DNA of 34,781 nt from a virus (Duplodnaviria; Heunggongvirae; Uroviricota; Caudoviricetes), in IMG/VR virus record IMGVR_UViG_2880361019_000004, positions 1 through 34,781 of that record; one strand, given 5' to 3'. A program made the translations under genes and the position numbers. Positions within the stretch are counted from its first letter, which is position 1. Each line of letters starts with the position of its first letter. Of this stretch, positions 893 through 4,522 are shown one piece after another. The notes beneath the pieces were generated by a model. That model had not been told where the DNA came from. It did no database searches and was given only the letters and a program-made list of their open reading frames with translations.

Positions 893-934
893 GGCCGCAT
901 AACCTCCTGCTTTGTTGATGATATCTTTCTCGCC

Positions 935-1080
935 TAATCGATCGACAAAAACGATCGATTCGATGTGTTTAATTGATACAACAAATAGATTGAAAAGTCA
1001 TCAACAATGATTCAGGGAGGTGATTATTTACTAAAAGAAAACGAAGACTTAGGGTGTGAAAACGATCATAAAATGATCAT
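935..1080 (-). promoter_or_regulatory. Putative com-mom regulatory region with two pairs of GATC (Dam) sites
   Basis: GATC at 940-943 and 953-956, 50-65 bp upstream of the com start; second pair at 1064-1067 and 1075-1078 inside an inverted repeat GATCAT-aaa-ATGATC. In Mu the mom promoter is Dam/OxyR- and C-regulated through clustered GATC sites. No promoter hexamers assigned. Confidence 0.35.
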
Positions 1081-1306
1081 TTTATTGACTTTTTATCCAG
1101 TGAAGGTAGGATCGCGCGCATATGTAGTATGTTTCAAATCAACAGGATACTACATAAAAGGGAAACCCAGCATAGCTGGAACTATGCTGGGTCAATCTGT
1201 AAAAACTTGCATCAATGCTTTACTTCGAGCTCGTGGCGTATCCTATGATATTCCCCGGTCTCCTGTAAAGCAGAGATATATCTGTTCAGGCAGGAAAAAT
1301 GGATAA
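1007..1306 (+). CDS. Hypothetical protein (weakly supported ORF)
   Basis: 99-aa ORF in AT-rich DNA with no convincing ribosome-binding site; contains a perfect 10-bp hairpin at 1166-1191. Confidence 0.2.
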   Translation: MIQGGDYLLKENEDLGCENDHKMIILLTFYPVKVGSRAYVVCFKSTGYYIKGKPSIAGTMLGQSVKTCINALLRARGVSYDIPRSPVKQRYICSGRKNG

Positions 1307-1505
1307 ACTAACCACAGACCCAAAGTTACAGGCTGCGCGAATTGCAGCTGATATTACAATTGCAGCAATGACATCCACCAGGGGTAACTTTACCTCTTTT
1401 CATACAGCAGGTGATTCATCCGCTATGCAGTTATGGAACGCGTGCTTTTCTGATGTAATTCGTGCAATCAGCGAGTCAGTTGACCTTCGCGAACCGCAAA
1501 AATAG
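1299..1505 (+). CDS. Hypothetical small protein
   Basis: 68-aa ORF with AGGA upstream of the ATG; the only ORF in this stretch; 3' end overlaps the convergent minus-strand gene at 1468-1668. Confidence 0.35.
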   Translation: MDKLTTDPKLQAARIAADITIAAMTSTRGNFTSFHTAGDSSAMQLWNACFSDVIRAISESVDLREPQK

Positions 1506-1668
1506 CGCATCTTGGGGTACACAGGATCTGCATAGCTATCCACATTGCGGTGGCGAAGTTTCGATCCTGTAATGTATCTTCATCAAGTCCTGAACGTAGC
1601 GCATTGATAATTTCCGCGCTTAATCTTTCCAGGCCTTTGGTATCAGGTTGCTTTTTATTCTTGTCCAT
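1468..1668 (-). CDS. Hypothetical small protein (66 aa from internal start MDKNKK)
   Basis: GAGGA Shine-Dalgarno 8 nt before the ATG at 1666-1668; the longer 78-aa form from 1704 has no ribosome-binding site. Confidence 0.5.
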   Translation of the reverse strand: MDKNKKQPDTKGLERLSAEIINALRSGLDEDTLQDRNFATAMWIAMQILCTPRCAIFAVREGQLTR

Positions 1669-1704
1669 GATTATTGTCCTCTGATTGGTATATAAAGCGC
1701 CCAT

Positions 1705-1740
1705 GAAAATAAAACCGACAGGAGAAACTGCCGGTTTGTA
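1705..1740. terminator. Hairpin with flanking T-runs (candidate bidirectional terminator)
   Basis: Stem CCGACAG/CTGCCGG (one G-U pair) followed by TTTGTATTG on plus and TTTTATTTTC on minus; sits between the 84-aa and 66-aa minus-strand genes. Confidence 0.4.
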
Positions 1741-1743
1741 TTG

Positions 1744-1998
1744 TTACATCATGGTGCTGTCAGTTCCGGGCTGAGCCGGTTCTGGTTGCTCTGGCTGCGC
1801 GTCGGTTTTCGGTTCATTATCAGCATCACTGGCCGCTGCTGCTGGCCCAATAAGTTTTTCCAGCACCTCATCAACGTAAGTGTCGATTTGTGCCTCAAAA
1901 TCCTTGCGGACCTGCGCTTTCAGCAACTTATTTACTTCACCGGAATACAGTGCCTGTTTTACCAGGTCTTCAGTGACGGTGCCTTTAATTTCTGGCAT
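1744..1998 (-). CDS. Hypothetical acidic protein (84 aa)
   Basis: Strong AAGGAGG Shine-Dalgarno 7 nt upstream of the ATG; coiled, charged N-terminal half and Pro/Glu/Ala-rich acidic tail. Confidence 0.6.
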   Translation of the reverse strand: MPEIKGTVTEDLVKQALYSGEVNKLLKAQVRKDFEAQIDTYVDEVLEKLIGPAAAASDADNEPKTDAQPEQPEPAQPGTDSTMM

Positions 1999-2033
1999 GT
2001 ATATCCTCCTTATGCGGTAATAAAGCCCTGCAA

Positions 2034-2216
2034 TCAGGGCTGGGTCGGGTCTTTTGGGAGCGGAGTTGCCTGCGCTGTTTTACTGAGTTTTTCAGCTGCT
2101 GCGTCCTCAATTTTGCGGCGAACATAATTTCTGATGGCCTTATAACCACCACTCACCAGATATAACGCACATACTGCCGTGCAGAAATACAATAAAATAA
2201 GCTGTAAAAATGTCAT
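2034..2216 (-). CDS. Hypothetical small membrane protein (60 aa from MTFLQL)
   Basis: GGGAGGG Shine-Dalgarno before the ATG at 2214-2216; one predicted transmembrane helix (LILLYFCTAVCALYLV) then a charged tail. Confidence 0.55.
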   Translation of the reverse strand: MTFLQLILLYFCTAVCALYLVSGGYKAIRNYVRRKIEDAAAEKLSKTAQATPLPKDPTQP

Positions 2217-2312
2217 TATCCCTCCCAATTATTGACATGGTGTTGACACCGGTAATATCTGTTAGGTAAAAAGGTGCACTGCATTTTTTGCTTTGGATAT
2301 AACGATCTTTTT

Positions 2313-2352
2313 GCCGCCGGTTTCTTGTTTTCCCTTACCGGCGGCATTTTTT
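2313..2352. terminator. GC-rich hairpin with T7 run downstream of the esterase gene
   Basis: Stem GCCGCCGGT...ACCGGCGGC followed by ATTTTTTT on the plus strand and preceded by a T5 run; sits directly after the esterase stop at 2361. Confidence 0.45.
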
Positions 2353-2360
2353 TATCCTGC

Positions 2361-4415
2361 TTACGCGTTATTCACTTCCACCACGATACTGTCAATCAGT
2401 ACCGGGTAAGTCGCATTTTTAGTGATATCGGTCACGCGCAACTTGTCTGCCGTAAACGTGCCGACCGAAGACTGCGACAGCATGAATGGTGTCCCGTCCT
2501 TACCATCAATGACCGGCGTCACCTCAATACTGTTGTTACCGGCAAAACGGAAGCCCAGCGTATGCCATTCGTTATTAAATGCGCCGAATGACCCCAACTT
2601 CGTGTTCTGCGCCGTGTTTCCTTTGTGATACATCACGTTAAGGTCTGTGGCATCGCTCTGTACGTAGAACGATGCCAGCAGGTTATGACCGGCATTTCCT
2701 TCCAGAGTAACCCCTTGCGGCAGGGCAGAAACCGGCCAGTACAGCGCCAGTGCGTACTGATTAGCCGTAAGCGCGCCATCGAGTTTAAAACGACAACTGA
2801 CAAGACCACCTTTACCCAGCAGGTCCGCACCATTACCAGCATCATGCTCAAGGTACCAGGGGGCTCTTCCTGTTTCCTTGGTCAGTTTCATTGCCTTACC
2901 CCCGCTGGCTCCGGCATCATCCACGATTTGAGCCTTGCCACCTCCGGCAGCCCAACCCTGTGGTGTCAACCGTCCTTCAGACTCAGATGCCCGGTAAGCA
3001 AATAGCGTACTCATCGTCGTGGTGTCTGCGGGTGGCGTGGACGGTTTTGATGGTGTATCAGGTGACGGCTTCTCATCCGGTGGTGTCACGGTCTGCCCGC
3101 GCATCAGTTCAGCCGTGCGCCCTGCATGGAGCATAATAGCTGAGGCCAGACGGTCTGAAATGACGCCCCTGCGTGCCCATGAGCTGAAATGGCTGTCACG
3201 CTGTGTCGAAACAAAACTGCCCTGGGTTCGGGATGCTGCACCGTAATACCCGACAGCCACAATATCCGGGTCTTCCGCCGGAGCATTCGTTGGCGTGCTC
3301 TGTCCATTCTCATCCGTCAGGAACGGTACAAAGAAAATTTTCTGTGCTTCCTTGCCTTTGTAGCCACCGTATACTGCCTCATATTTATCGGTGCCAGCGT
3401 TTTTCCAGTAATACGTGGTATCACCGCAAATCCACGGCACCGTGGTGGCATTTCCACTCACGCACTGCGCAGCAAGCGGAGCCAGGTCAGTTCTGAACTG
3501 CTGAACCATGGCCGTGAATAAACTATTATGCTGCTGGCTTCCTGAGGCAAGGTCTGCCTCTCCCTGCATCCAGACCACAGCCAGAAGTTTGTTTTTCGGG
3601 TTTTTCGCCAGCGCGACTTTGGTGCGGCTTACCAGGTCCTGATACAGAGGTTTACCGGCCCCCCAGCGTGAAGAATCAGCGGAAGCACCGCTGGCCTCAC
3701 TGAATGAGCCGTCGGCTCCAGTGGTGAATGCTGACCCGCCACGACAACAGGGCACCAGAAGTATCCCGGCATTCTGTGGGATATAGGGAAGCAGTTTTTT
3801 GGCAATATGCAACCCCTGACCGACAGTCCCGTACTGGCCTTTTGCCAGATCAGCTTTCGGGTGGTTTATCCCGCTCATATCCTGAACATCATGCAGGCAG
3901 TGGTCTGCCGGAATGATGTCGTTGTATGTACACGACGTACCGTTGGGCGTTACCGTACTGCGGCGTGCCAGTTGCTTAATGCGTGGGTCCGGGCGGTCAA
4001 ACGAATCCGGTAACGGCAGCCCCTCGCCGTAGGCCATGCCATTTGACTGACCCGCGAGAATGACAACAAAGTAATATTCCGGCTCTGAACTGCTGCCATT
4101 CGTGCTACCGGAAGGCCCGGCGTTATCCGGTGCATTCCAGTCGGAGGGCGTGAGCGTTCCGGCCACGTCAGATGTGATTGGAATGATGCCAGTCACGCCT
4201 GAACTGGTGATTTCTGCACTGGGATTACCGGATACCGGCATTACCCATAATGGCTCTTTCGTGCTGAAGCGGATCACGCAGTCTGCGAAGGTGATCCCCC
4301 CTTTATTACCCGAAGGGCGGAAAGGGCTTTCAATAAATGCCACCGTGCCACCGGCAACCTTGACTGAAAACTCTCCGGGCATGGCGGAGAGCATTTTCCA
4401 CTTGGAGTCTGACAT
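2361..4415 (-). CDS. SGNH/SASA-type carbohydrate esterase, sialate O-acetylesterase-like (NanS-p-like), with Pro/Thr linker and C-terminal lectin-like domain
   Basis: 684-aa ORF with the AGQSNGMAYGEG nucleophile motif (GQSN) and a downstream DSH motif typical of this esterase family; Pro/Ser/Thr-rich linker (PPDEKPSPDTPSKPSTPPADTTT) followed by a ~230-aa beta-rich domain. Confidence 0.65.
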   Translation of the reverse strand: MSDSKWKMLSAMPGEFSVKVAGGTVAFIESPFRPSGNKGGITFADCVIRFSTKEPLWVMPVSGNPSAEITSSGVTGIIPITSDVAGTLTPSDWNAPDNAGPSGSTNGSSSEPEYYFVVILAGQSNGMAYGEGLPLPDSFDRPDPRIKQLARRSTVTPNGTSCTYNDIIPADHCLHDVQDMSGINHPKADLAKGQYGTVGQGLHIAKKLLPYIPQNAGILLVPCCRGGSAFTTGADGSFSEASGASADSSRWGAGKPLYQDLVSRTKVALAKNPKNKLLAVVWMQGEADLASGSQQHNSLFTAMVQQFRTDLAPLAAQCVSGNATTVPWICGDTTYYWKNAGTDKYEAVYGGYKGKEAQKIFFVPFLTDENGQSTPTNAPAEDPDIVAVGYYGAASRTQGSFVSTQRDSHFSSWARRGVISDRLASAIMLHAGRTAELMRGQTVTPPDEKPSPDTPSKPSTPPADTTTMSTLFAYRASESEGRLTPQGWAAGGGKAQIVDDAGASGGKAMKLTKETGRAPWYLEHDAGNGADLLGKGGLVSCRFKLDGALTANQYALALYWPVSALPQGVTLEGNAGHNLLASFYVQSDATDLNVMYHKGNTAQNTKLGSFGAFNNEWHTLGFRFAGNNSIEVTPVIDGKDGTPFMLSQSSVGTFTADKLRVTDITKNATYPVLIDSIVVEVNNA

Positions 4416-4486
4416 CGTCTTTTCTGCCTGTTTCTGAATTAAACAGAGTCAGAATAGCGACCGCTGAAAAATATGTGTTTTGCGGA

Positions 4487-4522
4487 AATTCAAAAAAGCG
4501 TCACGGTACTTTTGGTGACGGA
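4487..4522 (-). terminator. Candidate intrinsic terminator at the 3' end of the invertase gene
   Basis: On the minus strand, stem CGTCAC...GTGACG followed by CTTTTTTG, overlapping the invertase stop codon. Confidence 0.4.

Follow-up and report, generated by a model that had tools for sequence, protein, structure and literature searches.

What fills the space between the tail-fibre invertase gene and the com and mom genes of a Mu-like prophage whose right end lacks the tight spacing of phage Mu, where did the genes found there come from, and do they serve the phage or its host? These questions are raised by a 34,781-nucleotide stretch of viral DNA (IMG/VR record IMGVR_UViG_2880361019_000004, positions 1 to 34,781; "the window" denotes this whole stretch), which shows a Mu-like prophage from its right end inwards: mom and com are followed by an interval of 3.6 kb and then by gin, beyond which lie an invertible tail-fibre segment and then the baseplate, tail and head genes, with the Mu-type major head protein at 18335-19282. 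In the FORC_069 record, which is 99% identical, host DNA starts directly after mom. We consider it probable that this interval contains a cassette built around a sialate O-acetylesterase of the NanS-p type, which the Sp18 lineage of Mu-like prophages carries as a fixed accessory module and whose origin and working are those proposed below. Neither the gene family nor the cassette nor the Sp18 prophage is new, and RefSeq already labels the protein "sialate O-acetylesterase / DUF6645"; the literature that we searched, outside which the NanS-diversity papers Saile 2016 and Rangel 2016 fell, contains no description of the Mu-type allele, its N-terminal head domain or its exchange with lambdoid prophages.

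The Mu-type right-end order gin, com, mom, with a cluster of Dam sites upstream of com, is present in the window in the same orientation as in Mu and D108, but the close adjacency of gin and com (about 0.1 kb) is not kept, since the distance from the gin stop to the com start is 3,608 bp here and 94 bp in Mu. The window invertase is 74% identical in amino acid sequence to Mu Gin, and the DNA-level match of Mu to the window is restricted to mom (72%) and gin (70%). A preliminary description made from the sequence alone had claimed that an extra block, absent from Mu, separates the invertase from com-mom, and this synteny comparison bears it out; the esterase cassette is absent both from Mu and from Mu-like prophages with more distant mom genes. 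The flanking genes, the spacer and the parts of the esterase gene are the following:

4501-5073, minus strand: gin-type DNA invertase (Pfam Resolvase 1.6e-51, plus HTH_7), the upstream flank, outside the cargo
4416-4500, minus strand: gin–nanS spacer of 85 bp, conserved with Sp18 only in part
2361-4415, minus strand: esterase open reading frame (ORF), 684 amino acids (aa), NanS-p family
4140-4415, minus strand: codons 1-92, Mu-lineage-specific N-terminal domain standing where DUF1737 would be; predicted fold a small beta barrel of cupin-like type
4080-4139, minus strand: codons 93-112, Ser/Gly/Pro-rich linker, at whose 3' edge (about 4083) DNA homology to lambdoid nanS-p begins
3126-4079, minus strand: codons 113-430, SGNH/SASA catalytic domain (PDB 3PT5, Pfam SASA)
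3012-3125, minus strand: codons 431-468, Pro/Thr/Ser-rich interdomain linker, seen in the sequence and Pro/Thr-rich at about aa 440-466
2361-3011, minus strand: codons 469-684 and stop, C-terminal lectin-like jelly-roll domain (DUF6645; PDB 6YP6, Pfam)
692-892, minus strand: com (Pfam Zn_ribbon_Com 2e-12), downstream flank
1-738, minus strand: mom (Pfam Mom 2.4e-77), downstream flank and right end of the prophage

By its domain matches the 684-aa protein is a NanS-p-family SGNH/SASA esterase with intact catalytic and C-terminal lectin-like domains. Profile hidden Markov model searches of it matched Pfam SASA (E 1.5e-13), DUF6645 (E 4e-67) and PHROG 143 (E 2e-296), so an esterase domain is present; the catalytic domain matches PDB 3PT5 (NanS/YjhS) with E 1.8e-117 over aa 110-428, and the lectin-like domain matches PDB 6YP6 (NanS-p) with E 1.1e-96 over aa 469-683. 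The characteristic motifs are GQSN (aa 122-125), GGSAF (226), WMQGE (282) and DSH (407-409); the block I GQSN serine and the conserved distal histidine expected of a NanS-p enzyme are thus present, and because of the GQSN motif we take Ser124 to be the nucleophile. These matches uphold the earlier reading of the protein as an SGNH esterase with a GQSN motif, a Pro/Thr linker and a C-terminal lectin-like domain, as well as its likeness to the prophage-borne NanS-p sialate O-acetylesterases. Chromosomal NanS (YjhS) of E. coli K-12, the protein of 3PT5, has a catalytic domain homologous over its full length, but the solved chain is without the extra N-terminal and C-terminal domains and its gene lies in a chromosomal sialic-acid operon.

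The resemblance to the lambdoid NanS-p proteins (933W ST933Wp42/z1466; phi24B gp84, also called vb_24B_21) goes further, in that both have the SGNH/SASA domain with its GQSN serine, the Pro/Thr linker, the lectin-like jelly-roll domain (6YP6) and DUF1378 and DUF826 genes downstream, and both are without an apparent N-terminal signal sequence (for the window esterase no hydrophobic signal is apparent by eye, the only inspection made). The lambdoid enzymes are active esterases on Neu5,9Ac2 that de-O-acetylate mucin glycans, and lysogens that carry them grow on Neu5,9Ac2 (PMC8065619); activity on 5-N-acetyl-9-O-acetylneuraminic acid is documented for the lambdoid alleles only (PMC8065619). The genomic settings differ, the lambdoid gene belonging to the late operon, with Q/stx on one side and the holin gene on the other, and the present one lying between gin and com-mom of a transposable Mu-like myophage. 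By sequence, the three-gene order esterase, DUF1378, DUF826 recurs in lambdoid Stx (Shiga toxin) and related prophages, where it lies between the stx and holin genes.

The two enzyme types part company at the N-terminus. The 933W NanS-p protein is 65% identical to the window esterase over aa 94-683 only (349 phage records matched), and alignment shows that the window and lambdoid enzymes have unrelated N-termini, so that the N-terminal ~110 aa, singled out earlier as a separate region, are indeed not common to the lambdoid enzymes. Lambdoid homologues bear DUF1737 (PF08410); Pfam finds no match to this family in the window esterase, and the full-length matches to the window protein are likewise without PF08410. 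In phi24B the DUF1737 domain binds the centre of the capsid hexon as a hexamer, and cleavage at the linkers removes the remaining enzyme (bioRxiv 10.64898/2026.04.10.717836). Where that capsid anchor would stand, the window protein has a 92-aa domain without a Pfam family; it is not homologous to the hexon-binding anchor of the phi24B gp84-type decoration esterase, and it is known from prophage genes alone.

Comparison of the remainder of the gene with its relatives indicates where the enzyme body came from. Its closest relatives are DUF1737-bearing proteins with 87-90% aa identity over aa ~95-684, and the Sp18 allele has 66% aa identity. The DUF1737-bearing relatives belong to ordinary lambdoid prophages whose genes run Q ... 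nanS-p, DUF1378, DUF826, holin, lysozyme, Rz (a cassette order given also in PMC10462455). Window positions 4083-2082 are 87% identical in DNA sequence to a lambdoid prophage copy, with 85-98% identity in sliding windows outside the linker (codons 431-468, the most variable part of the gene in this comparison), as against about 69% identity to Sp18. The lambdoid similarity begins exactly at the junction of the N-domain linker and the catalytic domain and ends inside the DUF1378 gene. A second, independent case of body exchange exists, and because the exchange has been seen twice we conclude that recombination between Mu-like and lambdoid phages has moved the body repeatedly, each type keeping its own head domain. 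The N-terminal domain tracks the phage type in every case seen.

Relatives of the N-terminal domain are few. When 1.84 billion representative proteins were searched exhaustively with HMMER, no credible relative emerged except fragments of these esterases, and one true relative, the Salmonella fragment P0006, was gained; two further matches, to a repeat protein and a low-complexity protein, were judged spurious. A word-indexed homologue search with the domain alone returned fragments only, a scan of GTDB species-representative genomes with patterns of the domain returned nothing, no paralogue is present elsewhere in the window, and among 50,697 phage records the domain occurs solely in a Mu-like element nested in two Stx prophages. 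We have four intact variants, which diverge down to 27-39% identity with the reading frame kept and with W6, G14, G22-G23, F27, P34, L56-W57, V61, G63, P65, G73 and I78 invariant, and the two E. coli alleles differ by 0.23 at non-synonymous and by 0.78 (saturated) at synonymous sites; judged by these comparisons, the domain is under purifying selection. A further IMG/VR variant (L049, 1267-1710) has an in-frame stop inside the domain and its esterase ORF restarts at an internal ATG; the head domain may be pseudogenised, the gene may be split, or the sequence may be in error.

AlphaFold2 predicts from a five-sequence alignment a compact all-beta N-terminal domain, with a predicted local distance difference test score (pLDDT) of 73 overall and about 80-89 for residues 1-70; the full 684-aa protein, modelled from the single sequence, gave an unusable pLDDT of 32, and the domain model thus comes only from the alignment. 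Fold searches of this model against the PDB and BFVD gave generic cupin-like matches only, all below significance, and no similarity to tail or baseplate attachment domains was found. We therefore place the domain in no family and describe it as predicted to be cupin-like.

How widespread is this arrangement? The order gin, esterase, DUF1378, DUF826, the plus-strand gene described below, com and mom is found in the Sp18-type prophage of E. coli O157:H7, in another STEC (Shiga toxin-producing E. coli) prophage and in a Mu-like phage nested inside Stx phages. Counted over 5,426 complete E. coli genomes, the window-type N-terminal coding region is present in 28 and the Sp18-type region in 205, and com-mom of the window type at at least 95% identity occurs in 235 records; from the agreement of these numbers it follows that essentially every prophage of the Sp18 lineage carries the cassette, whose lineage is present in about 233 of the 5,426 genomes (~4%), O157:H7 included. 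Within this lineage of E. coli Mu-like prophages the gin-nanS-DUF1378-DUF826-com-mom layout is fixed; it belongs to the lineage and is no local insertion. Related Mu-like prophages thus routinely carry these genes at this place, and nothing marks them as core structural genes, so the block is extra with respect to Mu and accessory, as first supposed, but not peculiar to this prophage.

Sp18 of E. coli O157:H7 Sakai, predicted to be an intact prophage, and its relatives share with the window the order gin, esterase, DUF1378, DUF826, com, mom, a homologous N-terminal domain (62% aa identity) and a com-mom and control region that is 96% identical. They differ in that the esterase, gin and small genes are another allele (69-77% nucleotide identity), in that the body of the window gene has lambdoid ancestry, and in that a 430-bp replacement in the window adds a 66-aa gene and truncates a 154-aa plus-strand gene. 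An esterase whose N-terminal domain is homologous occupies the same place, after tail-fibre or gin genes, in more distant enterobacterial Mu-like prophages too. These distant loci are one from Salmonella, on a contig that stops inside the esterase gene, and two on IMG/VR contigs, one of whose copies adjoins a diol dehydratase gene; L048 is the sole distant locus that reaches past the esterase gene, and it is without DUF1378 and DUF826 and without gin.

Several other arrangements were noticed among these records. In some esterase-bearing Mu-like prophages (L002, 4794-5846; L048, 11785-12837) com is followed by a gene for a 350-aa C-5 cytosine DNA methyltransferase instead of mom; the L048 protein matches Pfam DNA_methylase with E 5e-40. 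In LC727881 (L002), from positions 4626-4629 onwards, a complete Sp18-type Mu-like phage lies inside Stx2c-converting and Stx1a-converting prophages, and in these composite records a lambdoid nanS-p homologue is present elsewhere in each Stx phage, so that both esterase types occur in one element. In E. coli O157:H7 FRIK2069 (L005, 1-7000) an Sp18-type prophage is inserted in dcuC, beside the host nanRATEK operon; given random Mu-type insertion, this proximity is probably a coincidence.

The remaining features of the interval, in order from the esterase gene towards com, are these:

2312-2346, minus strand: GC-rich hairpin with a 10-bp stem just past the esterase stop (z -3.7), T-run on the plus-strand side only
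2034-2216, minus strand: DUF1378 gene, 60 aa, ATG at 2216 (Pfam DUF1378 1.2e-32, phrog_494)
1744-1998, minus strand: DUF826 gene, 84 aa (Pfam DUF826 3.9e-15, phrog_311 1e-28)
1712-1737, minus strand: hairpin and T-run resembling an intrinsic terminator, 7 nt past the DUF826 stop (-14.5 kcal/mol, z -3.65)
1468-1668, minus strand: orphan gene, 66 aa, no family, within the 430-bp segment 1278-1706
1164-1193, minus strand: strong 13-bp hairpin with a T-rich tail on the minus strand (-21.5 kcal/mol, z -6.6)
1007-1306, plus strand: truncated remnant of the 154-aa plus-strand gene (phrog_26524 1.3e-43; a pseudogene in the Prokaryotic Genome Annotation Pipeline, PGAP)
936-1113, no strand: Dam-site cluster with the palindrome AATCGATCGACAAAAACGATCGATT and GATC at 940, 953, 1064, 1075 and 1110, the mom/com regulatory region

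The three small minus-strand genes of the preliminary description (DUF1378, DUF826 and the orphan) all appear to be real, the third with 66 aa and not the 78 first given. The DUF1378 start agrees with the PGAP call in the FORC_069 record and has a GGAGG ribosome-binding site upstream, and the protein's N-terminus contains a hydrophobic stretch that looks by eye like a membrane segment. The orphan gene, which has no phage match, lies in the segment found in only 17 of the E. coli genomes; relative to the 92%-identical STEC299 allele it carries 3 non-synonymous and 11 synonymous changes and for this reason is regarded as a real gene, and an upstream indel that breaks the longer frame rules out the 78-aa reading. 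PADLOC defence-system models gave no match for six proteins of the 3.6-kb block, and a reading of the block as a defence system was dropped on that account; NCBIfam gave nothing for the block's proteins. The hairpin at 2312-2346 looks like a terminator for antisense transcription and not for the esterase gene, since its T-run is on the plus strand only, whereas that at 1712-1737 is the probable end of the nanS-DUF1378-DUF826 transcription unit. We sought a terminator-like hairpin in the 85-bp gin–nanS spacer and found none.

The AT-rich stretch with hairpins and Dam sites, counted at first with the accessory block, is present (G+C fraction 0.40 over 893-1467 and 0.548 for the window, and five GATC sites in 221 bp where 0.75 are expected, Poisson P about 0.001), but it does not stand as cargo: it is 96% identical to the same region of Sp18, and positions 893-1467 are, from this comparison, the mom control region and the truncated plus-strand gene. 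The perfect palindrome AATCGATCGACAAAAACGATCGATT at 936-960 holds two Dam sites 44-68 bp upstream of the com start, and is similar to the Dam sites, AATCGATCG/GATCGATTA, in the promoter region of Mu mom; the Mu GATC sites, at 4660, 4678 and 4691 of the Mu locus L003, lie just upstream of com in similar AATCGATCG/GATCGATTA contexts, and the palindrome is nearer com than in Mu. The hairpin at 1164-1193 is a possible transcriptional insulator ahead of this control region. Comparison with L005 shows that the plus-strand gene, intact (154 aa) in Sp18, is cut here at 1277 by the 430-bp replacement. The Sp18 protein (phrog_26524) has paired CPAC motifs at its C-terminus, and the 3' half of its gene is what segment 1278-1706 replaces.

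The prophage itself is by its gene content defective. An element of the insertion sequence family IS66 lies at 22567-25020 in the head-gene region (transposase ORF 23445-24983, helper ORF 22648-23052); there, close to the 3' end of a DUF935 portal-like gene, the Sp18 alignment is interrupted, and 8 bp match on either side of the break. Similarity to Sp18 ends at 32080 and is followed by a DUF2513 ORF, an IS1 transposase (32675-33178) and a host-type aminotransferase gene of the DegT/ArnB kind (33624-34781), and the prophage appears to have lost its transposase and repressor (early) end. Despite this decay the esterase frame is intact, which fits either recent decay or selection at the level of the host.

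What, then, might the cassette do? We propose that it is probably transcribed with or just after gin, with which it is co-oriented, that transcription would end at the hairpin at 1712-1737, and that the cassette is insulated from the tightly controlled com-mom operon, the hairpins at 1712-1737 and 1164-1193 keeping read-through out. The enzyme would be made in the cytoplasm and, because no N-terminal signal sequence is seen by eye, would leave the cell at phage lysis; outside, by analogy with lambdoid NanS-p, it would remove 9-O-acetyl groups from the sialic acids of gut mucin, to the benefit of the surviving lysogen population. The Mu-specific head domain may tether or oligomerise the enzyme on the Mu-type virion, as DUF1737 does for phi24B. 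Among the roles that the head domain might have, this one is thought most likely because the domain is a replacement at the anchor position, is restricted to Mu-like prophages and is conserved, and we put it forward tentatively. A wider view, which we likewise hold to be conceivable but short of likely, is that phage NanS-type esterases are modular enzymes that modify mucus glycans, are displayed on the virion and have exchangeable anchors, each specific to a morphotype. DUF1737 would then suit the T=9 capsid found in phi24B-type podophages, the adaptor for Mu-type myophage particles would be the 92-aa cupin-like domain, and the catalytic and lectin body would move freely by recombination while each phage type keeps its own anchor.

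A number of points weigh against these proposals. The activity, expression and virion role of the Mu-type enzyme are predictions from sequence; no convincing sigma-70 promoter was found upstream of the esterase gene, where promoter-like sites occur at chance level; and the N-terminal domain is found in prophages only and, among the 50,697 phage records, in no isolated phage genome. Since the window prophage is defective (IS66 insertion, early region missing), its esterase cannot serve a virion here. There is also no homology upstream of the head domain in which a crossover could occur, and retention of the domain could be purely mechanical; because homologous recombination could not have replaced it anyway, its retention is by itself no proof of selection. 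The gene could be pure lysogenic-conversion cargo that serves host use of O-acetylated sialic acids, its N-terminal domain oligomerising the enzyme or binding carbohydrate without any link to the virion. This is the main rival, which we place a little short of an even prospect, and on present data it is at least as likely as the virion-tether step. NanS-p lets lysogens grow on Neu5,9Ac2 (PMC8065619), the gene is intact in an otherwise decayed prophage and sits at the very end of the phage genome beside mom, a typical place for cargo, and cupin-like folds often dimerise or bind sugars; yet the domain that was replaced is a proven capsid anchor in phi24B (bioRxiv 10.64898/2026.04.10.717836), its replacement follows phage type, and an enzyme with no signal sequence visible by eye would reach its substrate only through lysis.

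The preliminary description had also raised the idea of a receptor-modifying tail enzyme, in which the N-terminal domain would dock on the tail or baseplate and the enzyme would deacetylate O-antigen or capsule for adsorption. O-acetylesterases are known tail-spike activities in other phages, and the gene directly follows tail-fibre and invertase genes in all Mu-like variants. A review raises the same possibility for NanS-p (PMC8065619). We nevertheless consider it improbable, as the catalytic and lectin parts can be swapped for those of the lambdoid enzymes, which are anchored on the capsid and not on the tail, the N-terminal domain resembles no tail or baseplate attachment domain, and Mu, D108-type and other Mu-like phages infect without an esterase. 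Least credible of all is that the N-terminal 92 codons are a non-functional leftover of a fusion and only the esterase body matters: the domain has no family, known fold match or known function, and the L049 variant restarts downstream of its in-frame stop, but a frame kept in at least four such divergent variants, with invariant residues, the low non-synonymous relative to saturated synonymous divergence (above) and the confident model of a compact beta domain tell against it, and this conservation pattern has largely refuted it.

NanS-p proteins are seen as fitness factors with which enterohaemorrhagic E. coli feed on O-acetylated mucin sialic acids, and have been discussed almost only for lambdoid Stx phages. 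What is new here is that a whole transposable Mu-like lineage, in ~4% of complete E. coli genomes and including O157:H7, has its own version of NanS-p, that its catalytic body has been traded with lambdoid prophages, and that the exchange reaches precisely as far as the domain for which anchoring of the enzyme to a capsid was recently demonstrated. Should the head domain not bind particles, the finding would be one more allele of a known accessory gene; it matters mainly because it can be linked, in a way open to test, to the capsid-anchor finding. The case raises the questions of whether these esterases are virion-displayed phage tools or host-serving cargo, and of how anchors are swapped between unrelated phage architectures.

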